Shown here one piece after another: positions 11,265 to 29,675 of a stretch of 64,000 nt of DNA (the stretch's first letter is position 1; each line of letters starts with the position of its first letter). Both the position numbers and the translations under genes were made by a program. Under the pieces are notes generated by a model. That model saw only the letters and a program-made list of their open reading frames with translations. It made no database searches and was not told the origin of the DNA. The DNA is from Planctomycetota bacterium (lineage in GTDB: Bacteria > Planctomycetota > B15-G4), in assembly GCA_038212275.1 (NCBI GenBank), contig JBBQUR010000022.1, forward strand, positions 17,369-81,368. The letters run 5' to 3'.

Positions 11265-11381
11265 CCCGGTGATGATACGAGACAAGGCGTGCCTGCGGCT
11301 CGGGCGCGGATTATCATCCCGCGGCGGATGCGGCGCCGCAGGGTTGCCGGACGTTGCGGTCTGTTGCGGGAGTGGATCGAC

Positions 11382-12581: not shown

Positions 12582-12585
12582 GCGG

Positions 12586-13965
12586 ATGCTCGCACGCGTC
12601 GCCGCGCGACTCGCGGATCTCGCGCAGCGCTTCGTCCCCGACCCGTTCGTCATCGCGCTGGGGCTGACCGCGGCGACCTTCGCGCTGGGTTGGTCGACCA
12701 TGCCTCCTCCCGCGACGGGCAGCGGCGTGGCGGTGCTCGCGGCGGGCTGGTTCCAGCGCTTCTCCAGCACCGAGACGCTGGCCTTCACGACGCAGATGGC
12801 GCTGGTGCTCGTCGCGGGCTCGGCACTCGCGCGTGCCCGACTCGTGCGCAGCCTGCTGGCGCGCCTGGCCGACGTGCCGCGCGGCACCGCGGGCGCTGCG
12901 GCCCTGACGGCGCTGGTCGCGCTGCTTGCCTCCTTTCTCAACTGGGGTTTCGGCCTCGTCGTCGGTGCGCTGCTGGCGCGCGAGATCGGTGCGCGCGCAT
13001 CGGCTGCACGGCGCCCGCTGAATTATCCGCTCGTCGCGACGGCGGGTTACGTCGGACTCATGGTGTGGCACGGTGGACTCTCCGGCAGCGCGCCGCTGAA
13101 GATGGCGGAGGCCGCGCCCTTCGGCCTCGCGACGATTCCGCTCTCGGAAACGACCTTCTCGCCGCTGAACCTCGCGCTCGGCGCGGGGCTGCTCGTGTTC
13201 GTGCCGTGGCTCTTCGCGCGGATGGCCGCCGCGCAGGGAGCCGCGCCGCGCGTCTGGGAGGTGCAGAGCCTGGTCGCGGGCGACGCGGCCGATGCGGTCG
13301 ATGCGGAGGGCACGGCCCCTCGCCGACGCGCACTGCCGCTGCTGCTGCTGCTCTTCGTGCTGGCCCTCGGCGCGCTGGCGCTGGGCGGGCTCTTCGCCGA
13401 GGCGGGCGTGCTGCGCGCGCTGTCCCTGAACACGGTCATCCTCATGCTGATGCTTGGCGGCCTCGCGCTGTTCGGCTCGCCGCAACGCTATGCGGCCGCG
13501 TTCGTGTCCAGCGTGGGCGAGGCGGGCGGGATCCTGCTGCAATTCCCTTTCTATTTCGGGATCCTCGGCCTGCTCGAGGCCTCCGGTCTCGGGGTCCGGC
13601 TCTCGGGCGGCACCGTCGACGCGGCGCGCGGACTCTCTGCGCTGGGCTTCCCGCTGGCATGGAGCTTCGACATGGTCACGTGGCTCTCGGCCGCGACGGT
13701 CAATCTCTTCGTGCCGTCGGGCGGCGGGCAGTGGGCCGTGCAGGGGCCGATCGTCGTGCACGCCGCGGGCGAGCTGCAGCTCCCGGCCGCGCGCGCCGTG
13801 ATGGCCTTCGCATATGGCGACGAATGGAGCAACATGCTGCAGCCCTTCTGGGCGTTGCCGCTGCTCGGCATCACCGGCTTGCGGGCGCGTGACATCCTGG
13901 GCTACTCGCTGACGGTGATGCTCGCTTCGGGCGCACTCTTCGCGCTGGCGTTCGCGCTCTTCTGA
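12586..13965 (+). CDS. atoE: Short-chain fatty acid transporter AtoE family
   Basis: PDPFVIA, LAFTTQMAL, NWGFGLVVGALLARE, WHGGLSGSAPL, QFPFYFGI, VPSGGGQWAVQGP, NMLQPFWALPLL. Confidence 0.95.
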   Translation: MLARVAARLADLAQRFVPDPFVIALGLTAATFALGWSTMPPPATGSGVAVLAAGWFQRFSSTETLAFTTQMALVLVAGSALARARLVRSLLARLADVPRGTAGAAALTALVALLASFLNWGFGLVVGALLAREIGARASAARRPLNYPLVATAGYVGLMVWHGGLSGSAPLKMAEAAPFGLATIPLSETTFSPLNLALGAGLLVFVPWLFARMAAAQGAAPRVWEVQSLVAGDAADAVDAEGTAPRRRALPLLLLLFVLALGALALGGLFAEAGVLRALSLNTVILMLMLGGLALFGSPQRYAAAFVSSVGEAGGILLQFPFYFGILGLLEASGLGVRLSGGTVDAARGLSALGFPLAWSFDMVTWLSAATVNLFVPSGGGQWAVQGPIVVHAAGELQLPAARAVMAFAYGDEWSNMLQPFWALPLLGITGLRARDILGYSLTVMLASGALFALAFALF

Positions 13966-14156: not shown

Positions 14157-16052
14157 GTGGCCCGTATCAACCCGATCGACGATGAGCAGGTGCACGTCCT
14201 GCACGTGGACGAGCCGGGCGCTGGCGGCGGCCGGTTGCCGATGCTCCTCGCGGGGATCGCGCTGCTGGTCGTGGCCGGGGCCGGAGTGTGGCTCTGGCTG
14301 CACCCCGAACTGCTCGAGGGCTTCACCTCGACCTCCGTGAAGACCGCGCCCGCCCCAGGCGAGGAGAATCGCCTCGGCGACAGCTGGTCCTTCGAGACCA
14401 CGGAGTCCACCAGCGCGAGCCAGGCGTGGGTGGTGCCGCCCGAGGCTCCGTCCGGCTTCCGGTTCGCGGCCTCGGGTGCGGTGAGCGGTGAACTCGGCGC
14501 CGTTGCCGAGCCGGGCGTGGTGGCTGCCGCCGCAGAGGCACCCGCGGGCGCGGCCGGTTCCCCGGCTGCCGCTGCGCACGGGAGCGCGGAGGCGGAGAAC
14601 GCCGGCTGGTGTCGCATCGTCACCGAGAAGGCCGTGCCGCTCGGGGCGCATCGCGGCGCCGTGCGCCTCTCGGCGATGTCGCACGCCCCGGGCATCGAAT
14701 TGCTCGTGCGCTTCGTGGGCAGGGATGGCCGCCCGCTCGACATCGTCGTGGCGCGCGGCGAGGGGCCGATCAGCGGCGAGGTGCTCGTGCCGCCGGGCGC
14801 CACGGCCGTGCAGGCCGGCTTGCAGTGCATCGGCCCGGGCAGCGCGGACGACCTGAGCCTGGAATTCGTGCCGGCGGGCGGGCTGTCCCTCCAGCGGCGC
14901 GGCATCTTCGACATGCTCGCCTTCGCGGACGGCGCCGCCGTCTTCCGCGGCGAGCAAGGCGTGCTCGCGGTGTCGGGCCTCTCCGCCGCCGACCCGTCCG
15001 GCGCGCTGCCGCCTGCGAGTCTGCGCGCCGCGAGCGGCGAGCCCGGCGCGGACCTCGGCCTCACGCTGCCCGATGGCCGCGTGCTGCCGCGGCACGCAAG
15101 CCTCACGCGCGACGAGCGCAGCGTCACGTTGAGCGAGACGGTGGACGATGTGCCGGCGGACGTCACGCTGGTGCGCACGCTCATCGTGTCCGGCGCGCTG
15201 GCGGACGCCGCCCTCGGCATCGTGTCGGCGCGCGGCATCGAGCAATTCGCCGGCGACTTCCGCGTGGAGGGCGTGAGCTCCCTCGTGCTCGGTCACACGC
15301 AGGACCGGCTCGCGCTGCGCTTCGAACCGGAGACAACGCTCTCGGCCGTGCGGCAGCCGGACGGGGCAGTCGTCGTGCGCGCGGAGCTGTCCGGCGGCGG
15401 CCGCGTGTCGCAGACCATCGTGTCTCAGACGAGCTTCCAGGAGGAGCGCGTGGCGGCAGCGCAGCACCGCGATGCGGCGCTTGCGGCCGAAGCCGCCGGG
15501 CGTTTCGGCGAAGCGCTGGGAGAGGCCGGCATCATCGTCACGCAGTTCCCGCACGACGAAGACGTGCTGGCTGCGGCGCAGGCGCTTCGAGGACGCGTGC
15601 AATTGCTCATGCAGCAGCGCCTCGACGTGATCGACCGCGGCCTGTCCGATGCGCTGTTCCTCGACTCCGCGAGCCGCTGCCGCGAGGTGCTCGCCGACTG
15701 CCGGGCGGCGGCCGTCACCTTCGCGGGCAGCGATGCCGCCGCACTCTTCGAGGAGCGCGCGCTGAGCGTGGAGCAGCGCGCCGCGAAGCTGCTCGAGGAC
15801 GACCGTTCGCGCCGTGAGCGACGCCTTTCCGCGATCATGGAGTCCTTCCGCGCGACGGGCCGCCATGCCGCCCCTGCCGGCGAGATCGAAGACACGCTGG
15901 AGCGCTTTCTCGCGCCGCCCGCCGCCGACTCCGAGGCCGGCAAGACGGGACGAGGCGCGCCGCCCGCCGGCACGCCGCCCGCCGGCGCGCCGCCTGGCGA
16001 CGGCAGGCTGGCCACCGAGGGCACGCCGGACGCTGCGGAGGGCGGGCGATGA
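14157..16052 (+). CDS. Membrane-anchored hypothetical protein (N-terminal TM, beta-sandwich/CBM-like region, C-terminal helical TPR-like region); first gene of pilin cluster
   Basis: TM LLAGIALLVVAGAGVWLWL; stop overlaps the ATG of the pilM-like gene. Confidence 0.75.
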   Translation: MARINPIDDEQVHVLHVDEPGAGGGRLPMLLAGIALLVVAGAGVWLWLHPELLEGFTSTSVKTAPAPGEENRLGDSWSFETTESTSASQAWVVPPEAPSGFRFAASGAVSGELGAVAEPGVVAAAAEAPAGAAGSPAAAAHGSAEAENAGWCRIVTEKAVPLGAHRGAVRLSAMSHAPGIELLVRFVGRDGRPLDIVVARGEGPISGEVLVPPGATAVQAGLQCIGPGSADDLSLEFVPAGGLSLQRRGIFDMLAFADGAAVFRGEQGVLAVSGLSAADPSGALPPASLRAASGEPGADLGLTLPDGRVLPRHASLTRDERSVTLSETVDDVPADVTLVRTLIVSGALADAALGIVSARGIEQFAGDFRVEGVSSLVLGHTQDRLALRFEPETTLSAVRQPDGAVVVRAELSGGGRVSQTIVSQTSFQEERVAAAQHRDAALAAEAAGRFGEALGEAGIIVTQFPHDEDVLAAAQALRGRVQLLMQQRLDVIDRGLSDALFLDSASRCREVLADCRAAAVTFAGSDAAALFEERALSVEQRAAKLLEDDRSRRERRLSAIMESFRATGRHAAPAGEIEDTLERFLAPPAADSEAGKTGRGAPPAGTPPAGAPPGDGRLATEGTPDAAEGGR

Positions 16053-17692
16053 GCTCCGTCGTCGGTCTCGACATCGGCGAGGGCAGCACGCGCCTGGTGG
16101 AGGGCCGCCTCAAGAAGGGGGCCTTCGAGATCCTGCGCGCGGAGAGCTTTCCCACCGGGCAGCTGCGGGCGAAATTCGGCGAGTTCAAGCTCAAGGGCCG
16201 CCGCACCATCGTGGGCGTGACGGGCCGCGACATGATCCTGCGCATCACGCAGGTGCCCTCCGTTCCGGCCTGGCAGCTCCGCGACCTCATGGCGCTGGAA
16301 ATCGAGGACATCGCCGAACAATCCGGCGACGAACTCTCCGCGGATTTCGGGCTGCTGGCCGCTGCGGGCGACGACGAGGACCGGGTGCTGCTCGCGCTGG
16401 TGCGCAACAGCCTCATTGCGGAGCGCACCGAGGCCATCGCGGTCGCAGGCGGCAAGCTGCTGGCCTTTTCCCCCAATGCGATCGCGCTTCACAACGCGGT
16501 GGTGGCCACGGACGGCGGTGACGGCACGCTGCTCGTCGCGGCGCTCGGCGGTCGCAACACGGACATCGCCTTGCTGCGCGACGGCGAGCTGCTGTTCGCG
16601 CGCAATCTCGCCGGTGGCGGAGATCTGTTCACCGACGCGATCGCCGACAGCTTCCGGCTCGACTTCGACAAGGCCGAGAAGGCCAAGCTGAGCCTCGGCG
16701 TCTTCCCGGCTCGCGGCGAAACGCTGGCCGGTCAGCAGGGCGCCGTGGCGCGCGTGCTCGAGGCGCCGTTGCGACAGGTGGTCGGCATGCTGCAGTCGTC
16801 CACGGTGCTCGCGCGCAGCCAGCTCAAGCTGCCCGATCTGGAGGTGGAGCGCGTGCTGCTCTGCGGGCCCGGCGCCTCGCTGCCCGGCTTCGCGGAGGCA
16901 CTCTCGTCGGCGCTCGGCCTGACGGTCACGCGCTTCGATCCGACCGACGGCTATCTCGTCGGCGGACAGAGCGTGCAGCCCGCGCGCGGCCCCGACTTCG
17001 CGGTGGCGGCCGGGCTCGCGCTCATGGGCGTGCTGCCGTCGGCGTATCGCGTGGCCATCCTCCCGGACGCGCTGCGCAAGCGTCAGCACTTCCGGACGCG
17101 CACGCTGTGGTTGCTGCTCGCGGCGGCGCTCGTGTTCGGGCACCTTGTGCTGGCCTTCGTCACCGCGCGCGAGAACTCGGCGGCCGCTGCCGCGGATCTC
17201 GGGCGGCTGCGGCGCGAGGTCGAATCGCGCAAGGCCGACATGGCGGGCCACGCCCGCGTGCTCGCCGAGACGCAGGAGCTGGCCGCCAAGCTGTCCACGC
17301 TGGAGGACCTGACGGCGCCGGGCAGCGGCGTGCTCACGGCCCTCGGGGAGCTCGAAGCCAGCCTGCCCGCGGAACTGTGGATCACCAGCATGAAGAGCAC
17401 GCGCGGCATCGAGCCGCAGCTCGGCCACGGTGGAGCGCGTCGCCCGTTCATCGCGGTGGATGGTCATGGCAAGGAGCAGTCGCGCAACCTCTCCGATGCG
17501 GTGACCGAGCTCACGACGCGACTGCGCGGGCAGCCGGGCATCTCCACGGTGCTGCCGCGCGTGACGACCGACAGCCGCGGCGCCTTCAACTTCAGCCTGA
17601 CCATCGACACCAGCGTCACGCCGAAGAGCGCGGACGACGATGGCTCGGAAGCGGACGCCCGCGCCACGCCCGCGCAGGGGAGCGGTGGCTGA
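16049..17692 (+). CDS. pilM: PilM-PilN fusion (GspL-like) type IV filament alignment-platform protein
   Basis: Actin-like VVGLDIG, FARNLAGGGDLFTDAIA..AEKAK, VLLCGPGASLPG, AVAAGLAL; then PilN-like ILP..R, TM, coiled coil, LPAELWITS. Confidence 0.85.
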   Translation: MSSVVGLDIGEGSTRLVEGRLKKGAFEILRAESFPTGQLRAKFGEFKLKGRRTIVGVTGRDMILRITQVPSVPAWQLRDLMALEIEDIAEQSGDELSADFGLLAAAGDDEDRVLLALVRNSLIAERTEAIAVAGGKLLAFSPNAIALHNAVVATDGGDGTLLVAALGGRNTDIALLRDGELLFARNLAGGGDLFTDAIADSFRLDFDKAEKAKLSLGVFPARGETLAGQQGAVARVLEAPLRQVVGMLQSSTVLARSQLKLPDLEVERVLLCGPGASLPGFAEALSSALGLTVTRFDPTDGYLVGGQSVQPARGPDFAVAAGLALMGVLPSAYRVAILPDALRKRQHFRTRTLWLLLAAALVFGHLVLAFVTARENSAAAAADLGRLRREVESRKADMAGHARVLAETQELAAKLSTLEDLTAPGSGVLTALGELEASLPAELWITSMKSTRGIEPQLGHGGARRPFIAVDGHGKEQSRNLSDAVTELTTRLRGQPGISTVLPRVTTDSRGAFNFSLTIDTSVTPKSADDDGSEADARATPAQGSGG

Positions 17693-18456: not shown

Positions 18457-21251
18457 AGGACGGGGCGCGCGAGCAACTGCTGTTCGCCGGCGTGGCCGTG
18501 CTGGTGGGGCTGCTCACGTGGCAGCGCCTCGCCGACAGCTACACGGCGGCCGGCGTGCCGTCGCCGAAGCGCGTGGAGGCCGCCGTCGTGGAGCGGCCGG
18601 CGCTCGCGCACATCGGCGCGGTGGCGGAACTGCCGCCGGGCACGCGCGAGGAGTCCGTCTTCGCGCCGCCGCGCGAGCTGCTGCCGCTCGATCCGCTGCA
18701 GCTTCCGCCGCCGCCGTTGCCGCCGCTCTCCGTGCGCCGCCCGGCGGTGCAGCCGTCGATGGCCGGCCAGGCGGCGCGCGCCTATCGCGTGGCGCCCGAT
18801 TCGCTGGGTTCGCTCGTGCTTTCGGAGCGGGTTCTGGATGCCTCCGAAGGGGACATCGGCGACGACGATCCGGACGCCGCCCCGGGTGGAGTCGGCGCGC
18901 CGAAGCAGGCTGCGACTGCTTCCGGCGGCACGAAGGACCCGTCCGGCAAGGGCGTCGGCGCCAAGCCTGCGCCGAACGGCAAGGCCGGCGTGGCCGACAA
19001 GACGGCCGGCGGCGCCAAGGCCGGCGGCGCCGCGCTCGACGAGACGCAGGAGAAGGCCGCCGAAGCGCGCTTCGACTGGATCGCGCGCGCCGACAGCAAG
19101 GGCCGTCTTTACGGCACGCTGCTGAACGAGGACCCGATCGGACTCGCACAGCGCCCCGGCGAGGATCTCGTCCTGCAGCAGTTGTCCGAGAGCACGGGCC
19201 GCGCGCTCGGCGCGCCCTTCGTCGTGGCGCGCACCGACGTGCTGGAGTTCGGACTCGCCGCGACGTTCGACAACGCGTATCTGCTGAAGTCGCGCGCACT
19301 GGGCGCGGGCGGTTCGGCGTCCGCCCGGCGTGCGCTGGCGCTGGAGATGCTGGCGGCCGAGGAGCTCGAGCCGCACGCGCTGGACTACGCCCTCAAGGAA
19401 GCGACGGCTGCCCTTGCCGCGGGTCCGAGCGATCCCGCGAATCTGCACCTCATGGCCCATGTCTACCGTCGCGCCTTCGACCTGCAGGGCGAGCTGTCCG
19501 TGTGCGAGGAGGCGCTGCTGCGCGGAGCCGCCGACCCCGCGCTCGTGGCGGCGCACGTGCGCCTCGTGCGCTCGCTCGGACTGACCGAGCGTGCCTGGGA
19601 GCTGCTCGCAGCGGCGCGCACGCTGGGCCGCCAGACGGCGGAGGTCGGCGTGGCGCATGCGCTGCTGCTCTGCGACGACGGCCGCTGGCAGGACGCGGCC
19701 GTCGTGCTGGCCGAGGCCGAAAACCTGCCTTTCCTCGGGCCGTTCGAAGAACTTCAGAAGCGGGAGCTCGCGCTGCTCGGTGGCGAGGTGCAGCTGGCCC
19801 TCGGCAAGCCCGACGAGGCTCTGCGCGCCAGCGCCCGCGTGCTGCTCGACGAGCCGCGCGATCTGCGCGCGCTGCTGCTGGCCGGCGCGGCGCAGGCAGC
19901 GCAGGATGCGCTCGTGCCGGCAGCCGAGTCCTTCGAGGCCGCGCTTGTCGTCGAATCGCGTGACAGTCGTGCGCTGACCGACGCCGGCATCATCGCGTGG
20001 CGCCAGCGCGACGGCGACACCGCGCGGCGACGCTTCCTCGATGCGGTCTCCGCCGATCCCTGGCGCGCCGTGTCGCCGCTGCTGGCGCTCGGCTTTCTGT
20101 ACGAGGATGCGAGCGACGCCAGCAAGGCAGCCGATGCCTACGCTGCGGCGCTGGACATCGATCCCGAGAATGCCGAGGCGCTCTACCGGCTCGGCCGCAG
20201 CCAGCGGCTGGACGGCGACCCCGAGGCCGCCACGCAGACCCTGCGTCGCGCGCTGCGGCTGGCCGGCCCGGATCTGCTCGTGCTGCTCGAGCTGGGCCGC
20301 GCGGCGGTGGATGGCGGCCGTCACGACGAGGCGCTGCGCTACTTCCGCGAGGCCGAGCGGCTCGAGCCGGACAATGCCGAAGTGCAGTGGTCGCTGGGGC
20401 TGGCCGCGCTGGCGTCGGGCGACACGCTCGGCTGCCGGCAGCCGCTCGGCTTCGCGGCGGCGCACGGCAAGCCGGGAGCCCACGTCGCGCTGGGCGTCGC
20501 GAGCTACCGCCGCGGCGATGCGCAGGAGGCGCTCGATCACTTCGACGAGGCGCTGAAGGCCTACGCCGGCCACGCCGACGATCCGCAGGCGCGCTACGCC
20601 GCCGAGCAGTCGGTCGCGGTGCGCGACAACCTCGCCAAGCGCCAGTGGCTCGACCGCTTCGGACGCAGCTCGCTGCAGCGCGGCTGGGTCGAGCATGCCT
20701 GGGACGGCAGCCCGCGCATCGTGAGCGACGCCGGCCACGTCGCCATCACCGGGCGCATGGAGAAGCCGCGCGACGACGAGCGACCGGGCATCGGCCGCAC
20801 GCTGGACGGGCGCGCCTTCTTCGGCGCCGCTGCGGAGCTGCTGCTCGCGGAAGGCGGCGACACGCGTGCCGGACTCTCGCTGACCTACAGCCAGGTCAAG
20901 GGCGCGCAGGGCCGGCTGCCCAAGGCGCAACTGGACATCTGGCTGGACACCGACGGCCAGGTGCGCCTCTCCGTCCTCGACAACTTCGACACGCGCGTGC
21001 TCGACGGCGTCGCGGTGACGGGGGCGGTCGCCACGCCCGGCACGCCGATCGTGCTCGGCATCGAGCGGCTCGATGACGTGACCGGCCGATTCGCTTTCAG
21101 TGTGGACGGCCGGCGTGTCGGCGCGCCCGTGGAGGTCAAGAGCTTGCGCAGTTTCAAGAACCCGCTCGACCTGCAGGTCTGGGCCGAAGCCGCGCCCGGT
21201 CGCACCGTGTCCGCCTCCGTCGCACTCGTGCGCATCGTGCAGGCGCCGTGA
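18453..21251 (+). CDS. Membrane-anchored TPR-repeat protein with Pro-rich linker and C-terminal ConA/LamG-like beta-sandwich
   Basis: N-terminal TM; TPRs (ALDIDPENAEALYRLG, LEPDNAEVQWSLG); C-terminal LDRFGR..W, FAFSVDGRRVG. Confidence 0.8.
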   Translation: MKDGAREQLLFAGVAVLVGLLTWQRLADSYTAAGVPSPKRVEAAVVERPALAHIGAVAELPPGTREESVFAPPRELLPLDPLQLPPPPLPPLSVRRPAVQPSMAGQAARAYRVAPDSLGSLVLSERVLDASEGDIGDDDPDAAPGGVGAPKQAATASGGTKDPSGKGVGAKPAPNGKAGVADKTAGGAKAGGAALDETQEKAAEARFDWIARADSKGRLYGTLLNEDPIGLAQRPGEDLVLQQLSESTGRALGAPFVVARTDVLEFGLAATFDNAYLLKSRALGAGGSASARRALALEMLAAEELEPHALDYALKEATAALAAGPSDPANLHLMAHVYRRAFDLQGELSVCEEALLRGAADPALVAAHVRLVRSLGLTERAWELLAAARTLGRQTAEVGVAHALLLCDDGRWQDAAVVLAEAENLPFLGPFEELQKRELALLGGEVQLALGKPDEALRASARVLLDEPRDLRALLLAGAAQAAQDALVPAAESFEAALVVESRDSRALTDAGIIAWRQRDGDTARRRFLDAVSADPWRAVSPLLALGFLYEDASDASKAADAYAAALDIDPENAEALYRLGRSQRLDGDPEAATQTLRRALRLAGPDLLVLLELGRAAVDGGRHDEALRYFREAERLEPDNAEVQWSLGLAALASGDTLGCRQPLGFAAAHGKPGAHVALGVASYRRGDAQEALDHFDEALKAYAGHADDPQARYAAEQSVAVRDNLAKRQWLDRFGRSSLQRGWVEHAWDGSPRIVSDAGHVAITGRMEKPRDDERPGIGRTLDGRAFFGAAAELLLAEGGDTRAGLSLTYSQVKGAQGRLPKAQLDIWLDTDGQVRLSVLDNFDTRVLDGVAVTGAVATPGTPIVLGIERLDDVTGRFAFSVDGRRVGAPVEVKSLRSFKNPLDLQVWAEAAPGRTVSASVALVRIVQAP

Positions 21252-21904
21252 GCTGCGCTGCCGCCACGCGCTGCGCGATGCCGGCCCGCCGCGCGGGCTT
21301 CACGCTCATCGAGATTCTCGTCGTCATCTCGATCATCGGGCTGCTCATGGGCCTCGTGGCCGTGGCCGTCAGCCGTCACGGTCAGGCGGGACGCATCGCC
21401 GACTGCAAGGCGCGCATCGACACGCTCTCGCTCATGGTGGCCTCGTGGGCGGATCGCAACGGCGACGTGCCGCCCTCACGCCTCGCCCAGGTGGGCGTGA
21501 CCGACGGCAACGGCGTCAACGAGGGCATCGAGGCTCTGGTCGTCGCGCTCAAGGGCAAGGCGTGGGCCGGGCGCCGCCCCGAGGAGCGCTGGCTGGCCAA
21601 CGTGGACGGCGACTCCAGCAAGGGCCTCAAGCTGGCGGACGGCAGCAGCGCGCTGCTCGAGGTGGTCGATCCGTGGGAGAATCCCATGGTCTACATCTCC
21701 AGCGCGGACTACGGCGCCGAGTTCACCTACCGCTTCGAGACGGAGAGCGGCGCGGACGACCAGACGGTGCACAGCGCCATCGATCGCCTGACCGGCGCGC
21801 CGCATCAGTTCGATTCGTTCCAGATCCTGTCGGCGGGCCCGGACGGCGTGCTGGGCACGGAAGACGACCTTGCCAACTACGAGATCGACACGGGCGAGCA
21901 CTGA
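21248..21904 (+). CDS. GspG/PulG-like major (pseudo)pilin
   Basis: Class III signal G|FTLIEILVVISIIGLL; DPWENPMVY and ILSAGPDGVLGTEDDL GspG C-terminal motifs. Confidence 0.9.
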   Translation: MSCAAATRCAMPARRAGFTLIEILVVISIIGLLMGLVAVAVSRHGQAGRIADCKARIDTLSLMVASWADRNGDVPPSRLAQVGVTDGNGVNEGIEALVVALKGKAWAGRRPEERWLANVDGDSSKGLKLADGSSALLEVVDPWENPMVYISSADYGAEFTYRFETESGADDQTVHSAIDRLTGAPHQFDSFQILSAGPDGVLGTEDDLANYEIDTGEH

Positions 21905-22895
21905 GCGCCGGAGCGCCGGCTTCACGCTGCTCGAGCTGCTGGTGGTGATGGCCATCATCGGCACGCTCATGGGCATCGGGGTCGGAGCCTTCGCCAGCCT
22001 CGGGCGCGCGGACCGCCAGGCCACCGGCCAGGTGAAGGACGCCCTGCGCGCGGCGCGACTCTATGCGTTGCGCGCGAGCGCACCCGCCGCCGTCGTCGTC
22101 GATCCCGCCAACCGCGAGGTCTTCGCCACGGGGCTCACCGCGACGGGCAACTGGCACTTCGAGGACGACGCGGGCACCGGCTGGCCCGTGCCGGCCCGCT
22201 ACGAACCCGGCACGCTGCTGCGCGAGGGCGTCATCGGCTCGGCGCTCTCCATCGGCGGCGACGACGTGCTGCTGATCACCGACCTGCCCTCGCGTTTCGA
22301 CTCGCCGCAGGGCTTCGGCGTGGACGTCTTCCTGCGCCCCGCCGCGGAGCCGCGCCCGATGACGCTGCTCGAACGCCCGGGCCGCTGGCAGCTGCGCCTC
22401 GACGACAACGACCGGCTCGAAGTGCGCCTCATGCTCGCCGCGCACCCCGAGCCCGAGGAATTCCGCGTGTCCTTCGATGCGCAGCTGCCCGACACGCGCT
22501 TCACCGAGCTCTCCGTGCTCTTCGACGGGCGCGTCCTGCACGTGGCGCTTGACGGGAGGCGCGTCGGCGAGGACACGCTGCTCACGACGCCGCGCACGCT
22601 GGCCGCCGCGCCGGGCTCGGTGCTCCGCAGCGGCGACGGCGTGCTGCGCTTCCGCGGCGCGATCGATGAACTCTCCGTGGCCGCGGTGGTGGAGGGCGAT
22701 CACCGCCCGCTGCCGGCGGACGTCACGCTGGATGGCGCCCTGCGCGTGCTGCGCCTCGACGGCTTCGGGCACCTCGATCCGGCCTGGCATCGCACGCCGC
22801 AGCAGGTCTCGTTCGAGACCGGCGAACCGCCGCGCCGCACGGTCATCGAACTGGGCGTGCTGGGCACCGTGCGCAGCTGGACGGATGCGCCATGA
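21870..22895 (+). CDS. GspH/FimT-like minor pilin with inserted LamG domain
   Basis: G|FTLLELLVVMAIIG; LRAARLYAL; LamG motifs WHFED..FRGAIDEL; start uncertain (TTG 21870). Confidence 0.85.
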   Translation: MPTTRSTRASTERRSAGFTLLELLVVMAIIGTLMGIGVGAFASLGRADRQATGQVKDALRAARLYALRASAPAAVVVDPANREVFATGLTATGNWHFEDDAGTGWPVPARYEPGTLLREGVIGSALSIGGDDVLLITDLPSRFDSPQGFGVDVFLRPAAEPRPMTLLERPGRWQLRLDDNDRLEVRLMLAAHPEPEEFRVSFDAQLPDTRFTELSVLFDGRVLHVALDGRRVGEDTLLTTPRTLAAAPGSVLRSGDGVLRFRGAIDELSVAAVVEGDHRPLPADVTLDGALRVLRLDGFGHLDPAWHRTPQQVSFETGEPPRRTVIELGVLGTVRSWTDAP

Positions 22896-25800
22896 GCGAG
22901 GCGCCGCACGGGGGGGGATCTCGCGGCGAGCGCGGCATCGCGCTGATCACGGTGATCCTCGCGCTGGTGGCGCTGGCGGTCATCGCCACGCCCTTTGCGC
23001 TCTCCATGCGCGGACTGCAGGCGCAGGCGCTCTACGGCTTCGAGCAGGAGGCTGCGCGCGCGGATTGCGATCTCGCTCTGGCCGCGGCGCGCGCTCATCT
23101 CGAGCAGACGCACCCGTTCCTCGACTCGGCCACGCCCTGGAGCGACGACCGGAGCGAGCTGTCCCCGCCGGACCTCGCGCAGCGCTATCCGGAGCTGCTG
23201 TCGCGCGCGCCACTGGGCACGATCCGCTCCGTGAGCATCACCGACGAGCAGGGCAAAGTGGACCTCGCGACGGCCTCGCCCTACCTGCTCGGAAACATCC
23301 TCGGCGGGCGCACGCTGCTCACGGCGGACATCGACGAGCGCGCGACGTCGCTGCCCGTCGCCTCCACCGCGGGTTTCCCGGACACGGGCCTCGCGTGGCT
23401 GGGGCGCGAGCAGGTGGAGTATTCGCTGCGCGAACCGACGCTGCTGGGTGAAGTGCGGCGCGGCCTTCCCAGCGCGGCCATGCCGCTCTCGCCGGCGCTT
23501 CCCCACGCCACGGAAGACGACGTGCTCGACGGGCGGCTGCTGCTGCTGTGCCAGCACGGCTGGCGCATCCGACCCGGAGTCTTCGACGGCTTCCGCCGCG
23601 TCGACGGCCTCAAGGAGATTTCGCTCTACGGCGAGCTCGCCTACACGGCGGAGGATCTTGACCGCGCGCGCGCCTCGCTCACCGTCGCGGGCGGTCCGCT
23701 GCGCTTCGTCGCCAGCCAGCGCGTGCTGACGCTGGCCACCGGGCGAGAGGGCGGGCCCGAGCTGGTCGTGCCGGACGGACGGCGCTTCGGTGCCGGCACC
23801 GTGCTGCAACTGACCACCGGCGGTGGCGACACGGAGTGGAATCTTGCGCTGGACTGCGTGGACTGGGGTGGCGGTGAGGGCTGGCACGTGGCCCTGCTGC
23901 TGCCGACGACGCTGCGGCACGACAGCGGCAGCACGGTGGCCGCGCTCGCGCGACATCCCGTGAACGTGGCCTCGGCGAGCCCGCGCGTGCTGGGGGCGCT
24001 CTTCGCGGGCGTGGGCCGCTCGCCGACGACCGACGTCATCAACGCACGCGAGGCCGCCGTGCTGTCCACCGCGCTGCTCGCGGTGGATGCCGGCACCGAC
24101 AAGAATGACCTGTTCGATGCGCTGGCGCCGGCGATCCGCCGCGGAGAGTTCAGCCTGGACGATCTGGACACCGCGCTCGACGCGATCGGCGGGGCGCGCG
24201 GGCTGCGGACGGCTCCCGATGCGGAGGCGCTGGCCGGCCAGCTGGCCGGGCTGGTCACGCGCCGGTCGCCGCAGCGCGTGAGCACCGTCGCAGCGCGCGA
24301 GCTTGCCGAGCGCCTCACTGCCAGGCCGCCGCGCTCACATGAAGACTTCGCCCTGCGGCTCGACGAAGCCGTCGCGCAGGGTGTGCTGCGGGCACCGCAG
24401 CGCGATGCGCTGCTGCGCAACGCCCTCGACAGCAGCGACGCGGCACTGTCGGGCGGGACCGCGCCGTTCACCTACGCTTCGGGCGGCGTGTTCAGCGTGG
24501 ACGCCGCCGTGAGCCGCAACTTTCCCAACGGGCGCGAACAGGTGCGCGCGCTGCGCTCGCAGATCCTGTCGGTGGCGCCGCAAGGCGAGAGCGCCCACAC
24601 GCTGGTGAGCCAGCGCGATTTCGAGGAGGCCAGCGAACCCGGTGCGGGGCAGCACGGCTGGAGCAGCGCTCCCCGCCTGCTGCAGTCGGGGCCCGGACCG
24701 GCGGGCACGGCCGGCGGTGTCGACGCCTTTGCCGAGGCGCTGGCTCTCGGCGGAGCCGGCGTGTCGCGCGCCGGCACGCTGGTCGCCGGTCGGCCGGGTC
24801 CCGCGGAGGACGGCGCGTCGGCCGTGTCGCCGTCCACGCTGCGCAGCACGCTGCCCGACACGCTGCACTTCGACGAGGGGCTCGTCGGGCTCACGGGCGA
24901 CTCGCCGAAGGGCTACTCGTTCGCGCAGGGGCCGGTGAGTCTTCCGCTGGCGGGGATCGTGCCGTCCCTCGTCAGCAAGCAGCCGCTGCTCGGGACCTTC
25001 GCGGTGGAGTTCTGGTGGCAGGTGCCCGACACGAAGGCCGAGGTCATCCTCTTCGACGGTGGTGCCGGCGAGCTGGAAGACCGCATCCTCATCGCGCTCA
25101 TCGGCGGCGAGCTGGTGCTCCGCGTCAGCGACACCAGCCTCCCCGACTTCGAGGCCGTCATGCCGAAGGGGCACGCGCCGCCCGCCGGCGAGATCCGCTA
25201 TGCCTTCGATGACGGCCTGAAGCTGCTGCCCGACACGCCCTACCACGTGCTCGCGTCCGTCGGCGGCGCACGCGACACGCAGCTTGCGCTCTTCGTCGAC
25301 GGCCTGCCGCGCGGACACCGCTCGTTCACGACCGCGCTCGCGGAGGACCTCGCGTCCGCCAACACGCAGCTCGAGGGCATCGCGGGGTACGGCGGCGAGG
25401 AGAAGGTGCGCGTGGAATCCACGGCGGGCTTCCCGGATCGCGGCGCCGTGCGCATCGGCACCGAAATCCTCGAGTACGTGGAAAAGACCGACGACAGCTT
25501 CGTGGTGCGGCGCGCCGGCGAGGTGGACAGCTTCGGCGGACGCGGCCGCCGCGGCACCGCTGCGCTGAAGCACGACGCCACCGAGCTCGTGGAGCTGGTC
25601 GGCTGGAGCCGCGCGCTCGGCAGCGAGCGGGCGAGTCAGGGCATCGCCAGTCTCAACGGCGACATGGACGTGTTCACGATCGCGGAGCTCGACCCGACGC
25701 GCCTCACCGACGAGATTTCCGTGAGCATCGTGCCGAACAGCGGCGGCGCACCGGTCACCGTCCCGCTGGGCACGGGGCTCGCCTACGGCAACAGCACCCT

Positions 25801-28075
25801 GCCGCTGCGCGGTGGCGGCGGCTCGGCGTTGAAGTCCGGCTCCTTCCAGTCGGGCGGCGGCTTCGCCATCCTGTTCTGCGATTACGGCCGCAGTGCGGTG
25901 GCGGGCCAGCGGATCCCCAACCCGAACGCGCCCAACAATCCGCAGGACAGCGTCACGCTGCCGGCGCAGACGACGGGCGGCTGGCTCGGCGGCGGCGAGA
26001 TCGTGCGCTACTCCGGCTTCGACGGCAGCCAGCTCACCGGCGTGCAGCGCAACCAGGCGGGCATCCCGGTGGCCACGGGGGGGAAGGGCAGCAGCCTCGC
26101 GGGCACCGATCAGGTGGATTCGGTCTCCGGCGGCAGCACGGGCTGGGCCGAGCAGCGCGAATACGTCACCACCTTCGATGCGGCCATTCTCGGCGCCATC
26201 CAGGGGCTGCCCGAGAATCCCCGCGTCTTCGTGTTCCCGCTGTCGGTCGGCGTCACCGGCAGCAACCTGTTCGAGGACTTTCATCCGGCGCCCGACGGCC
26301 GCCTCAGTGCGCCGTCGGCCGTGGTGCAGGTGGGCATCGATTTCGAGGATGCGGACAACGCCACCGAGTGGATGCGCTGGAACACCGCCACCGACCTCGG
26401 CTTCGTGCGCGACGACAGCACGGCACTCGACAGCGGCCTGACCTACCTCATGGCCACCGGCCTGTGGGACCCGGGCAACGGCGCACCCGACGACGACACG
26501 GCCAAGGCGCTCAACGACGAGCTGGACTTCCGCGCCCAGGATGGCACGCCGATGAGCCATCACGGCAGCGGTGACCGCGTGCTGCCGACGATCGTGCTCG
26601 GCCGCTGGTTCTCCAGCGGCAACGACCCGCTCGTGGGCATTCCCGGCCGCCACGATTCCGTGACGCTGGTGAACACCGACGGCGACAAGGAATGGAACCG
26701 CATCAATCACGCCAGCAACCAGGATCCCGAATGGGGCAGCAACTTCTGCCTCGTCGGCCTGCGCGAGGCGGTCTCCGGCGAGTTCCTCTACACCGACGAG
26801 ACGGACGACTCGAACTACGCGCTGGCGGGCCTGCCGCTGCAGGGCCAGGTCAGCGCGGACAGCACGGCCTTCGACATCATCAAGTCGCTCAACGCCGACA
26901 GCCGGCTGTACACGCGCATGCTCTGCTCGCCCTCGGGGGAGCTGCCCACGGCGCCGATCGAGGCCTTTCACATGGGAGCCGACTGGAGCGGCCGTCCGAG
27001 CACGGGACTCGCCATCGTGGACGAGCTGCGCTTCCACGCGCCCGTCGGATCCGGCGAATACCTGCCCGACAACGGCCGCTGCCTGCTTGGCGAGGATCTC
27101 GAGCTGGAGGAAAACCGCCAGCTGCGCCTCGGCGTCGAGGCGCTGGCTTTCCCGTACGGTCAGCGGCGCGATCCCGTCCTCGGCGGCGGGGCGCTGGAGG
27201 TGCTCGGCTCGCTGGGACAGGCGGGCGGGCTGCTGCTCGTGGGCGAGGAGATCGTCGGCTACGCAGGGCTCGACGCCGTGGACTCCGGCAATGTCTTCCT
27301 CACGGCGCGCGGGCTCTACGGCACGCAGCGGGCCTTCCACCGGGCCGGCGAGGCCGTCACCGCGCTGCAGTTCTGGCCGGTGTCGCCGCTGGCGTCGTCG
27401 GTGACGGCCAGCTCGGGCCACCTGCCGCTCGCAGACAGTTCAGGCTTTCCCGCGGACGGCGGCCTGGTGTGGGTCGGCGACGAACTGATCGACTACACCT
27501 CGCGCGACGAGAGCGGTCTGAACCTTCCGGTGGCCACCACCGGCTCGCGCCTGCAGCTCTCGTCGGAAGGCCTGCTGCGCGGGCGCTTCGGAACCGTCGC
27601 CGCCGAGCATCCGGCCGGCACGCTGGTGCGCTGGATGCCGGCGCGCGTGGCCGACCGCGCGATGCTCGGCCACGACGTGCCGGAGTCCGAGAGCCTGCGG
27701 CTCACGGTGCGTGCGCCCGGAGCTTTCTTCACCGACCTCATCGTGGACGCGTTGCTGCCGGACAGCAAGGTGTCGTTGCAACTGCGCGCCGTACTCGACG
27801 GCCGCGCCTCGGCGCACGACGACGCGACGAAGCACCCCGGGCTGCTCGCCCTCGCACCGGCCGACGGCCGCGTGCAGCCTTCCGGCCGCATGCAGTTCGC
27901 GCTCGGCCGACAGGCCGACGTGCTCGAGCTTTTCCTGTTCTCCGAGTGGGCGCGCGACGCCTTCGATGCGCGCAGCTACACGAGCAATGCCTGGAAGCTT
28001 GCGCCGGAAGTGCGCGCCCTCGTGGTGGGGCACGCCCAGCCGACGCTCGTGCTCGAGCAGGAGGATCGTCGATGA
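22892..28075 (+). CDS. Giant (1727 aa) GspK/PilX-like minor pilin with LamG domain and repeated tail-protein-like beta modules
   Basis: RG|IALITVILAL (no Glu5); ITDEQGKVDLATA, FRRVDGLKEI, VNVASASPRVL, SGGVFSVDA GspK motifs; long C-terminal extension. Confidence 0.85.
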   Translation: MSEAPHGGGSRGERGIALITVILALVALAVIATPFALSMRGLQAQALYGFEQEAARADCDLALAAARAHLEQTHPFLDSATPWSDDRSELSPPDLAQRYPELLSRAPLGTIRSVSITDEQGKVDLATASPYLLGNILGGRTLLTADIDERATSLPVASTAGFPDTGLAWLGREQVEYSLREPTLLGEVRRGLPSAAMPLSPALPHATEDDVLDGRLLLLCQHGWRIRPGVFDGFRRVDGLKEISLYGELAYTAEDLDRARASLTVAGGPLRFVASQRVLTLATGREGGPELVVPDGRRFGAGTVLQLTTGGGDTEWNLALDCVDWGGGEGWHVALLLPTTLRHDSGSTVAALARHPVNVASASPRVLGALFAGVGRSPTTDVINAREAAVLSTALLAVDAGTDKNDLFDALAPAIRRGEFSLDDLDTALDAIGGARGLRTAPDAEALAGQLAGLVTRRSPQRVSTVAARELAERLTARPPRSHEDFALRLDEAVAQGVLRAPQRDALLRNALDSSDAALSGGTAPFTYASGGVFSVDAAVSRNFPNGREQVRALRSQILSVAPQGESAHTLVSQRDFEEASEPGAGQHGWSSAPRLLQSGPGPAGTAGGVDAFAEALALGGAGVSRAGTLVAGRPGPAEDGASAVSPSTLRSTLPDTLHFDEGLVGLTGDSPKGYSFAQGPVSLPLAGIVPSLVSKQPLLGTFAVEFWWQVPDTKAEVILFDGGAGELEDRILIALIGGELVLRVSDTSLPDFEAVMPKGHAPPAGEIRYAFDDGLKLLPDTPYHVLASVGGARDTQLALFVDGLPRGHRSFTTALAEDLASANTQLEGIAGYGGEEKVRVESTAGFPDRGAVRIGTEILEYVEKTDDSFVVRRAGEVDSFGGRGRRGTAALKHDATELVELVGWSRALGSERASQGIASLNGDMDVFTIAELDPTRLTDEISVSIVPNSGGAPVTVPLGTGLAYGNSTLPLRGGGGSALKSGSFQSGGGFAILFCDYGRSAVAGQRIPNPNAPNNPQDSVTLPAQTTGGWLGGGEIVRYSGFDGSQLTGVQRNQAGIPVATGGKGSSLAGTDQVDSVSGGSTGWAEQREYVTTFDAAILGAIQGLPENPRVFVFPLSVGVTGSNLFEDFHPAPDGRLSAPSAVVQVGIDFEDADNATEWMRWNTATDLGFVRDDSTALDSGLTYLMATGLWDPGNGAPDDDTAKALNDELDFRAQDGTPMSHHGSGDRVLPTIVLGRWFSSGNDPLVGIPGRHDSVTLVNTDGDKEWNRINHASNQDPEWGSNFCLVGLREAVSGEFLYTDETDDSNYALAGLPLQGQVSADSTAFDIIKSLNADSRLYTRMLCSPSGELPTAPIEAFHMGADWSGRPSTGLAIVDELRFHAPVGSGEYLPDNGRCLLGEDLELEENRQLRLGVEALAFPYGQRRDPVLGGGALEVLGSLGQAGGLLLVGEEIVGYAGLDAVDSGNVFLTARGLYGTQRAFHRAGEAVTALQFWPVSPLASSVTASSGHLPLADSSGFPADGGLVWVGDELIDYTSRDESGLNLPVATTGSRLQLSSEGLLRGRFGTVAAEHPAGTLVRWMPARVADRAMLGHDVPESESLRLTVRAPGAFFTDLIVDALLPDSKVSLQLRAVLDGRASAHDDATKHPGLLALAPADGRVQPSGRMQFALGRQADVLELFLFSEWARDAFDARSYTSNAWKLAPEVRALVVGHAQPTLVLEQEDRR

Positions 28076-29241
28076 GACGCCCGCGCGGCTTCACGCTCAT
28101 CGAGGTGCTCGCGGCCACCGCGCTTTTCGCGCTGCTCGGCACGATGTTGTTCACCGTGGTGCGCGGCGCGATGGACCTGTGGACGATCGGCGAGCGCAAT
28201 CGCGAGCTCAACGACCGCGCCAGTGCCGCGCTCGACCTGATGGCGGAGGACCTGCGCACGACGTGGCCCGGTCTGCCCGGCGCGACCGAGCAGGACAGCC
28301 GCTTCCTGGTGGCGCAACGCACCGACGATCGTCCGCCGGGCGCGACGGGGAGCTCGTCGCTGCTGGCCTTCGCGCGGCTCTGCCACGAACAGCGGGCGCT
28401 GGACTGGTTGCGCCGTGCGGGTGACACGCCGGGGGCGCAGGGCACCGCCAGCCTCGCGTCGCCGTCGGATCCCGCGCAGCTGCAGCCCACCGGCGGACTC
28501 GCCGAGGCGCTGTTCATGCTCGCGAGAGCACCCGGCGACGTGCTGCCCTCGCTCATCCGCCGCGTGCGCACGCCGCTCGGCGGCACGGGCTCGCTGCTCG
28601 ACGAGGACAGCTGGGTGACGCCCGCCGGCGCACCGTCGGGCGGAGGTCTGCGCGACCAGCTGCAGGCGGCCGAAGCGCGCGGAGCCGGCGTGTGGCGCGA
28701 CGGAGTGGTCCTCGCCGACCGGGTGCTGTGGTTCGGCGTGCTCTGCTGGGGCGCCGACACGACCTGCTGGGATCGACTGCCGACCGACCCGGCCGATGCC
28801 GTGCCGGCGCTGCCCGTGTGGGACAGCACGCGCGGACTCGCTCCGGCCGGCACGGAGGGATTTCCGCTGGCGGTGGGCCCGGCCTCGCTGCTCGACGGCA
28901 GCGACGACGTCTTCCCGCAGCGCGTGCGCCTGACGCTCGTGCTCGAACGCGACGAGGGCAATGCCACCACGGGCGTACTGTCCGATGAGTTGAGCCTGAC
29001 GGGCCGCACGCTGACCCTGGCCTCCGCCAGAATTCTGGAGGACGAGCAGGCTCCCGACTTCGTGCTCGTGGACGCCGAATGGCTGGGCGTGACGGCCGCC
29101 GACGGGCGGAACCTGACCGTCACGCGTGGCGCGCGGGGCACGCGGCCGGCGCAGCATTCCAGCGGGACGAAGCTGCGCGTCGGCCGGCGCTTCGATCGCG
29201 TGGTGGACCTGCCCTGCGGGCGGGAGAACTGGAACCCGTGA
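28072..29241 (+). CDS. GspJ/PilW-like minor pilin with C-terminal tail-protein-like module
   Basis: ATG 28072 (ATGA overlap, GGAGG upstream); G|FTLIEVLAA; ALDLMAEDLR; VVLADRVLWF; PQRVRLTLVL. Confidence 0.87.
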   Translation: MRRPRGFTLIEVLAATALFALLGTMLFTVVRGAMDLWTIGERNRELNDRASAALDLMAEDLRTTWPGLPGATEQDSRFLVAQRTDDRPPGATGSSSLLAFARLCHEQRALDWLRRAGDTPGAQGTASLASPSDPAQLQPTGGLAEALFMLARAPGDVLPSLIRRVRTPLGGTGSLLDEDSWVTPAGAPSGGGLRDQLQAAEARGAGVWRDGVVLADRVLWFGVLCWGADTTCWDRLPTDPADAVPALPVWDSTRGLAPAGTEGFPLAVGPASLLDGSDDVFPQRVRLTLVLERDEGNATTGVLSDELSLTGRTLTLASARILEDEQAPDFVLVDAEWLGVTAADGRNLTVTRGARGTRPAQHSSGTKLRVGRRFDRVVDLPCGRENWNP

Positions 29242-29675
29242 ACCAGCGCGGCTTCACGCTCATCGAGGTGCTCGTGGCCATGCTGGTCTTTGTGACCGGC
29301 GTGGCGGGGTTGCTCGCGCTCATCGTCACGGCGCTGGCGCTGCACCGCGACGGCCTCAACCTGGCGCGGGCCACACGGGACTTCGACGCACTGCGGGCGA
29401 CCATCGTCGCGGAGGTGGCGGCGGGCGGGCACTTCGACGCGGACCGGCACGCCTTTGTCGATGTGGCCGTCGCGGCCCTGCCGGACGGCACCACCTACGC
29501 GGTGCACTTCATCCCGGGCGACGGGGTGGAGCCCGACCGGGCCGAACTCCGCTTCGGGGCCAACGAGGCCGAACTCCGCACCGCGCGGCCGGTGGTCTTC
29601 GCGCTGCCGACCGGCCCGCCCCTGGCGTCCACGGTGGCGCGCTGGCGGGAACGCCAGGCTCGCCCGGAACACTGA
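29238..29675 (+). CDS. GspI/PilV-like minor pilin
   Basis: GTG 29238 (GTGA overlap); QRG|FTLIEVLVAMLVF. Confidence 0.87.
   Translation: MNQRGFTLIEVLVAMLVFVTGVAGLLALIVTALALHRDGLNLARATRDFDALRATIVAEVAAGGHFDADRHAFVDVAVAALPDGTTYAVHFIPGDGVEPDRAELRFGANEAELRTARPVVFALPTGPPLASTVARWRERQARPEH

Follow-up and report, generated by a model that had tools for sequence, protein, structure and literature searches.

The stretch of DNA considered here, hereafter the window, comprises 64,000 nucleotides from a Planctomycetota bacterium (assembly GCA_038212275.1, contig JBBQUR010000022.1, positions 17,369 to 81,368 of the forward strand), and its most unusual gene is a very long open reading frame (ORF) at window positions 22892..28075 (+), which starts with ATG and encodes a protein of 1727 amino acids (aa), referred to below as the giant. 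An original prediction, made from the letters of the DNA, described this ORF as a GspK-like pilin carrying about six copies of a beta module resembling parts of phage and gene transfer agent (GTA) tails. Long spurious frames are plentiful in the window because of its G+C content of approximately 72%. Judged from its relatives, however distant some of them are, the predicted ORF is a real, conserved gene: 21 full-length homologues of 1487-1763 aa share 43-56% identity with it, and the mean column identity in the family alignment is 58%. Related loci, with identities down to 24%, number 27 in a scan of a species-genome collection and 15 in a metagenome scan; the genome records of 25 of the 27 name Planctomycetota, Phycisphaerales, Phycisphaeraceae or Phycisphaera, and the other two read just 'bacterium'. 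A search for shorter proteins with aa 1430-1590 returned seven matches, all short, 55-64% identical and on small contigs, which are read as fragments of the giant family. The whole-family profile had no match at an expectation value (E) ≤1 among PDB sequences, and nothing on a giant planctomycete GspK family was found in the open-access library searched. The dissection of the repeats, the module copy in a GspJ-like neighbour and the phylum-wide spread of the module are new here.

The N-terminus of the giant is of the prepilin type. The motif reads R-G/I-A-L-I-T, with Thr instead of Glu at +5 after the Gly, and leads into a hydrophobic helix; a prepilin helix without Glu at +5 is common to the giant and to GspK/XcpX. 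Structural matching was performed with VIA-align over 48,161 PDB chains, using AlphaFold models of aa 13-640 and aa 1390-1727. With the N-terminal model (32 sequences, predicted local distance difference test [pLDDT] 86.9, predicted template modelling score [pTM] 0.83), ranks one and two were taken by XcpX (5vtm_X; Z-score [Z] 13.2, root-mean-square deviation [rmsd] 3.3, 215/259 residues, 20% identity) and by GspK of enterotoxigenic Escherichia coli (ETEC) (3ci0_K; Z 13.2, rmsd 3.6, 236/280 residues), which upholds the GspK-like assignment. Both alignments span model residues 32/40-552, and therefore the GspK fold corresponds to aa 44-564, with approximately 300 extra residues that form the two inserted barrels; the superposition includes the pilin fold with a helical domain inserted in its beta-sheet. 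This fold is common to the giant and to GspK/XcpX (3CI0 chain K, 5VTM chain X; NF037980, PF03934), as are G-, H-, I- and J-like neighbour genes. The giant differs in being five times longer, in the two beta-barrels inserted in its core, in a head of approximately 1,160 residues (linker included), in sequence-model scores far below the cut-offs and in having no linked ATPase, platform or secretin genes. GspK sequence models match five of the 21 homologues at E≤0.01. Elsewhere in the same genome there is a second large GspK-like frame (C2:273956-277054, minus strand; an open frame of 976 aa, at least 715 aa of which fall in the locus), with a T2SSK match at E 3.9e-4.

Four clear copies of the module (c1 to c4; Table 1) were recovered where they had been predicted, by BLASTP, by hidden Markov model (HMM) and by profile-profile comparison. 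Excised copies align significantly, with segment-versus-protein BLASTP giving E 3e-7 for c1 with c4, 2.8e-5 for c2 with c4, 3e-5 for c1 with c2 and 1.5e-4 for c3 with c4. An HMM seeded with c1, c2 and c4 of the 21 homologues recovered the unseeded c3 at an independent E-value (i-E) of 3.4e-6, as compared with 0.23 for the best reversed-sequence match, and profile-profile comparison yielded 97-98% for the c1, c2 and c4 pairs and for c3 with c4, 58-89% for c3 with c1, and at most 8% elsewhere in the protein. The first copy is located inside the GspK core (model residues 111-208), as had been proposed, and c1 and c4 have an identical strand order in two separate models. Even at 21-31% identity, members of the family retain all four clear copies. 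The two degenerate copies of the original prediction fared less evenly. The first, d1, reaches a marginal i-E of 4.7e-4, against 0.02-0.036 for the best matches in reversed and shuffled controls, and by its sequence is probably a real copy; for the second, d2, hhalign gives 49-52% against a background of at most 4%, which makes it only suggestive as a module copy. The predicted total of about six copies is accordingly reduced to four solid ones, a marginal fifth and a suggestive sixth. It could be that d1 and d2 are two decayed copies, or one copy split by approximately 160 residues.

Table 1. Features of the giant gene and of its pilin-related neighbours, in window coordinates; i-E values for module copies are from a profile of 118 excised copies
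Feature	Position	Strand	Basis or remark
Whole ORF, probable GspK-class modular pseudopilin	22892..28075	+	21 homologues, alignment
Prepilin-type hydrophobic N-terminal helix, aa 13-71	22928..23104	+	sequence; helix at model residues 2-59
GspK-fold core, aa 44-564, with two barrels inserted	23021..24583	+	VIA-align
Module copy c1, barrel aa 123-220, in GspK core	23258..23551	+	HMM match aa 150-215, i-E 1e-18
Second inserted beta-barrel, aa 268-354 (model 256-342)	23693..23953	+	structure only
Linker, aa 565-690, Gly/Ala/Pro-rich, predicted disordered	24584..24961	+	pLDDT 47-65 at model residues 551-628
Putative LamG/concanavalin-like lectin region, aa 700-818	24989..25345	+	homologue matches
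Module copy c2, aa 837-905	25400..25606	+	i-E 3e-23; phrog_4406 and phrog_2885 match aa 832-879
Probable degenerate copy d1, aa 1034-1074	25991..26113	+	first half of module only; i-E 4.7e-4, hhalign 82-84%
Possible degenerate copy d2, aa 1214-1232	26531..26587	+	second half only; i-E 0.78
Module copy c3, aa 1434-1495	27191..27376	+	i-E 8e-18; strands at C-terminal-model residues 57-102
Module copy c4, aa 1507-1585	27410..27646	+	i-E 6e-25; PF23666 on aa 1504-1578; phrog_1101
C-terminal beta-sandwich, aa 1586-1717, jelly-roll/carbohydrate-binding-module type	27647..28042	+	pLDDT mostly >90
PilM-like ATPase-fold protein (Amuc_1101 family)	16049..17692	+	heads conserved cluster, 17/17 loci
GspG-like pseudopilin	21248-21904	+	17/17 loci
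GspH-like+LamG pseudopilin	21870-22895	+	17/17 loci
GspJ-like pseudopilin, 389 aa	28072..29241	+	N_methyl and weak GspJ matches; adjoins giant
GspI/PilV-like small pseudopilin	29241..29675	+	16/17 loci

Tailed phages carry, in their tail-tip, baseplate and fibre proteins, a small six-stranded barrel to which the module is homologous in sequence as well as in fold. Rcc01698_C (PF23666) is the only Pfam family matched in the giant (E 5.7e-4), with c4 as the closest copy; it matches nine of the 21 homologues, the best of them with 26.5 bits, and precomputed tables of the collection give PF23666 for two relatives. All six PHROG matches of the giant are to tail, baseplate, virion-structural or unannotated families, the top three at E 2.3e-9, 9.5e-7 and 1.2e-6. 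Among the 118 single copies (E≤1e-3), 19 matched phrog_4406, 17 phrog_2885, 14 phrog_1101 and eight phrog_22827, and no annotated non-structural PHROG family was matched by any of them. A tblastn search with c4 retrieved 14 phage records (E 2e-4 to 5e-3), of which 13 belong to T4-like Synechococcus phages; in phage S-H34 a baseplate wedge protein of 1942 aa, encoded in the baseplate gene block, is matched close to its N-terminus. A scan of viral contigs with c4 alone produced 40 pattern matches, none of which was confirmed. Against PDB sequences the module profile found nothing significant (8vjh_A at E 0.19, a motif-like alignment), and a profile of aa 1390-1727 found only a chance TetR-like match at E 0.36. 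The predicted likeness to phage and GTA tails is thus supported by the PHROGs, by Rcc01698_C and by matches to phage structural proteins. A common bacterial adhesin repeat was also considered and rejected, with no such family among the Pfam matches of the giant or of its 21 homologues and no bacterial adhesin family matching the module.

The module is by no means confined to the giant family. Searching 1.84 billion representatives with the module profile gave 5518 matches at E≤1e-3 and 1022 at E≤1e-10, the best-scoring of which are 3849-7633 aa long and show 10-23 stretches of match; the maximum for a single protein is 17 copies at i-E≤1e-3, or 23 when counted as matched stretches. Three proteins of this length range were scanned, two of them with a tail collar domain at the end, and such proteins look like giant phage fibres. 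A GspK core, as tested with a profile of aa 357-565 only, is present in 108 of the best 150 of the 5518 representatives and not in the other 42; the 108 clusters carry three (5 clusters), four (91), five (7) or six (5) copies at i-E≤1e-3. Twenty of the best 150, picked by length before the GspK-core test and all belonging to the 42 without the core, were scanned further: 19 match tail or virion PHROGs, and two have a C-terminal phage tail collar domain. Many of these PHROG matches run through the module itself, so that the independent markers are the collar domains together with long tail-spike or virion-protein alignments in five proteins. The closest sequence relatives of the module are giant virion, baseplate-wedge and fibre proteins of T4-like cyanophages and uncultured phages (phrog_4406, phrog_2885 and phrog_1101), in which the module is also repeated; these differ from the giant in being without a pilin part and, in some cases, in a terminal tail collar domain.

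The structural comparisons lead to the same group of proteins. For c4 (residues 103-202 of the C-terminal model; 29 sequences, pLDDT 87.2, pTM 0.83), the top five chains are all phage structural (Z 7.5-9.1, rmsd 1.8-2.1, 71-78 residues, 8-23% identity), namely the VP1 capsid protein 9in6_M (Z 9.1, rmsd 1.9, 76 residues, 22% identity), the phage Chi tail tip 8vjh_A (Z 8.7), 8jov_1 of the GP4 portal-tail complex (Z 8.7), the JBD30 baseplate protein 8rk3_o (Z 8.1, 23% identity) and the phage Mystique tail tube 9n71_B (Z 7.5). The four chains heading this ranking also head that of c1 (9in6_M, Z 9.6; 8vjh_A, Z 9.5, rmsd 1.8; 8jov_1, Z 9.4; 8rk3_o, Z 9.0), and the best matches of both copies are accordingly phage tail-tip, baseplate and capsid proteins at Z 8.1-9.6. 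The GP4 cement protein of PMC9698820, with 157 residues, does not fit the 116-residue chain 8jov_1 and was rejected as its identity. Siphophage hubs (Chi 8VJH chain A, the 727-residue chain of JBD30 8RK3 and lambda gpJ 8IYK) match c1/c4 at Z 8.1-9.5 and rmsd 1.8-2.2 over 76-78 residues, and differ from the giant in their hub and fibronectin-like domains, which have no counterpart there. The JBD30 hub contains a small six-stranded barrel that is said to brace the baseplate (PMC11445458) and that may be the stretch matched by c1/c4.

Rcc01698 is the 'megatron' of the Rhodobacter GTA, the C-terminal part of which is a fibre-binding domain; the structure of the domain was only modelled by its authors (PMC7296036). 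The fibre-binding domain of the R4C megatron has three regions, two of which are described as forming the tail-fibre interface (PMC10276861). Copy c4 superposes on residues 1196-1294 of the R4C megatron (8gtc_M; Z 6.0, rmsd 2.2, 70 residues, 19% identity), a stretch that falls within the fibre-binding domain as delimited in the same source, residues 1131-1447. The giant differs from the megatron in that its Rcc01698_C score lies under the cut-off, in that its carrier is a pseudopilin and not a baseplate hub, and in that the module is repeated and dispersed, as opposed to C-terminal.

Foldseek searches against BFVD returned 36 viral matches at E≤1e-3. Against the PDB, the C-terminal model gave none at E≤1e-3, the top rows being podophage nozzle and tail proteins at E≥1.8e-3. 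For the N-terminal model, Foldseek lists IF2, V-ATPase N-terminal barrels and L35Ae, which places the module with the small six-stranded barrels of the type seen in EF-Tu domain 2. The second barrel in the GspK core has the fold class in common with the module and no detectable sequence likeness to it (hhalign only 2.4% against the module profile). It matches a Klebsiella phage tailspike (7w1c_A, Z 9.9) and a phage tail-tube decoration (9n71_B, Z 9.2), and also EF-Tu domain 2 (Z 8.5-8.9), lambda gpJ (8iyk_J, Z 8.1) and residues 159-244 of the R4C hub (8gtc_P, Z 7.3), which the authors of that structure term an oligosaccharide-binding domain (PMC10276861).

Between the core and the distal barrels, the linker is poorly conserved in the family alignment, and residues 568-640 are predicted to be disordered. 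Laminin_G_3 (PF13385) matches 15 of the 21 homologues, and the matches of three map to aa 700-818; homologue scores lie below or close to the 27.6-bit cut-off, and the giant itself has no match at E≤1. The C-terminal sandwich has a generic likeness only (VIA-align Z 5.6-7.0) to the DS-like domain of DDR1, GOLD domains, carbohydrate-binding modules and collagen-binding domains. For aa 906-1425, the best score in the ESM Atlas was 0.82, below the level that is meaningful for that tool.

The giant gene is part of a cluster of twelve genes (window 14157-34840), in the order 631-aa unknown protein, PilM-like protein, 235-aa ORF, 932-aa TPR protein, GspG-like, GspH-like+LamG, giant, GspJ-like, GspI/PilV-like, 845-aa PpiC-like protein, ScpB and 619-aa ORF. 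The cluster recurs in 17 Planctomycetota loci of at least 19 kb, with K, J, G, H, PilM and ScpB present in all 17 and I and TPR in 16, and the giant-gene products of these loci are 24-54% identical to this one. The operon is also present in a metagenome-assembled genome labelled Phycisphaera mikurensis. In NCBIfam, the PilM-like protein comes closest to the Amuc_1101 family, from a pilus-associated cluster of Akkermansia (E 1.6e-29, far under the cut-off). The GspJ-like neighbour carries a module copy of its own at the C-terminus (aa 331-369, window 29062-29178; i-E 2e-6, genome-level E 9.8e-4), in which E336, W337, R352 and H362 are invariant in 17/17 homologues. At E≤0.01 the module occurs at six sites in the 4.65-Mb genome, comprising the four clear copies and the GspJ-like copy in the operon and one site elsewhere. 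This only module-like match outside the operon (C12:116957-120157, plus strand; E 0.0035) is to the first half of the module and lies in an ORF of at least 935 aa without a Pfam family. Across the phylum, the module was found at E≤1e-5 in 82 of 121 sampled Planctomycetota genomes (this one included) and in 53 of the 78 that are at least 90% complete and at most 5% contaminated, and the matches are mostly several per frame of 1300-2300 aa.

These observations suggest that the giant is probably a modular minor pseudopilin of the GspK class, with a binding head displayed at the filament tip. Tip pseudopilins are, to our knowledge, normally small and without a known ligand-binding part. From the fold and the neighbouring genes we infer the location at the tip, and assembly with the neighbours, a binding function, the ligand and the direction of domain transfer are proposed here in the same conditional sense. 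The carrier, consisting of the hydrophobic helix and the GspK fold (aa 13-564), would be seated at the tip with the GspI-, GspJ- and GspH-like subunits, in what would be a type IV filament system, either type II secretion-like or pilus-like, that is conserved across Planctomycetota. Beyond a disordered linker of approximately 130 residues, a head of approximately 1,000 residues, with the LamG region, four to six further barrels and the C-terminal sandwich, would project from the filament tip as a large device for binding. The barrels may serve as rigid beads or docking units. In phages the barrel docks fibres or braces adjoining domains, and giant phage fibres have it in long series. Ligands, probably a polysaccharide or a cell surface, would most likely be bound by the LamG region and the C-terminal sandwich.

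Modular type IV pilins provide a precedent for such an arrangement, and include PilB and PilC of Streptococcus sanguinis, CofB and ComZ; the most extreme case quoted in the survey of such pilins has 860 residues (Raynaud et al. 2021, PMC8179133). The giant agrees with the definition given there, having an N-terminal pilin module and modules that are not specific to pili; in both, a pilin carrier is fused to modules that include concanavalin/LamG-type lectins, and display at the tip for binding has been proposed for the modular pilins (PMC8179133). The giant differs from those described in that text in its length of 1727 residues, its GspK-type carrier, the insertion of modules as well as their addition at the end, and the phage-tail type of its modules.

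Several findings weigh against this interpretation. The sequence models for GspK score the giant poorly (NCBIfam GspK NF037980, aa 13-123, E 0.0038, 16.8 bits with a cut-off of 130; PF03934, window 23960-24064, 13.9 bits with a cut-off of 24.2), and GspK was absent from the 50 best Foldseek rows for the N-terminal model against the PDB, unlike in the all-against-all structural aligner, which found it. The Rcc01698_C matches, at 20.6 and 18.7 bits, are below the gathering cut-off of 27, and tblastn with c2 gave no match among phage records. A Z of 8-9.6 for a barrel of 76 residues is near the range stated by the tool for unrelated models, and the barrel class of the module extends to EF-Tu domain 2 and to N-terminal barrels of ATPases; the fold alone is therefore no proof of a link to phages, and it is the sequence profiles that carry the claim. 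The window contains no ATPase or secretin gene, eight matches of each being located elsewhere in the genome, and the export of the giant, its processing by prepilin peptidase and its assembly into a filament are predictions. Finally, we know of no ligand for the module in any phage.

The missing ATPase and secretin genes would also suit a protein that never joins a filament, the pilin-like N-terminus acting as a membrane anchor or export signal and the head working at the inner membrane or in the periplasm, where it might hold polysaccharide. Passage through a secretin would be hard for a head of this size, and the disordered linker of approximately 130 residues would suit a tethered domain. 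Such a role is nonetheless unlikely, as the complete GspK fold is kept, the helical domain included, and the giant always has G-, H-, J- and I-like pseudopilin genes and that of the PilM-like protein around it, a gene set for filament tips; moreover, tip display is assumed for other large modular pilins (PMC8179133).

The conserved copy in the GspJ-like neighbour raises the speculation that the barrels attach other proteins, as in the GTA and R4C megatrons, so that the tip would be a multi-protein assembly resembling a baseplate, and not a single-chain adhesin, with the K and J copies holding extra fibres or lectins. This is consistent with the tail-fibre interface formed by two of the three regions of the R4C fibre-binding domain, inside which c4 finds its match (PMC10276861), and with the barrel-bearing JBD30 hub, which offers attachment sites for fibres and receptor-binding proteins (PMC11445458). 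However, no candidate fibre gene with a matching N-terminus was found in the operon, and R4C is the weakest of the phage matches (Z 6.0), making a docking role of this kind rather improbable. A bolder proposal, equally doubtful, is that the tip combines, as a chimera, a pseudopilin cap with an adsorption device in the style of siphophages, in which the K and J barrels, of the type that holds tail fibres on the baseplates of phages and GTAs, would dock lectin or fibre proteins for multi-armed capture of polysaccharides or cells, the module being of early phage origin and fixed since.

It is also conceivable that no viral recruitment took place, and that the barrel is an old cellular domain, taken up by phages or inherited by both, its 'virion-type' character being a matter of annotation history. 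The module appears to be ancient in Planctomycetota, since it is found in 82 of the 121 sampled genomes, and its barrel class is common to EF-Tu domain 2 and ATPase N-terminal barrels. On the other hand, all annotated sequence relatives found outside the pseudopilin family are phage structural proteins, the structural and viral relatives span sipho-, myo- and podophage proteins, and the module is nearly confined to one operon in the genome; a purely cellular history is consequently held to be quite improbable. That the supposed pilin gene is really the remnant of a prophage or tailocin, for which only the matches to phage families might be cited, is so improbable that it can be rejected, because the synteny of twelve housekeeping-linked genes beside ScpB is kept in 17/17 loci, from genomes only 24-59% identical, with no other phage gene in the 18 neighbouring ORFs scanned and with a GspK fold and a prepilin N-terminus in the giant itself.

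If the giant is indeed a tip-displayed modular pseudopilin, it provides a concrete candidate for the binding of substrates or cells by the filaments of Planctomycetota. Bacterial filaments and phage tails are both machines that probe cell surfaces, and with a planctomycete head built from domains of phage tail tips, the two would thus draw on common small barrels. Rcc01698_C and several function-poor PHROG families gain a large branch among cellular proteins that counts over 100 representative clusters, and the module, a unit of 70 residues in which Glu, Arg-Gly, Gly-Thr and His positions are conserved, could be studied for its function in a non-viral setting.

Two further features of the window are located outside the cluster. 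A 1689-aa frame at 7872-12941 on the minus strand has weak matches to glycoside hydrolase family 2 and to collagen repeats, and overlaps long plus-strand frames. A complete rRNA operon (58655-63952) comprises 16S, two spacer tRNAs, 23S and 5S, and over it the G+C content falls from approximately 70% to 53-58%.

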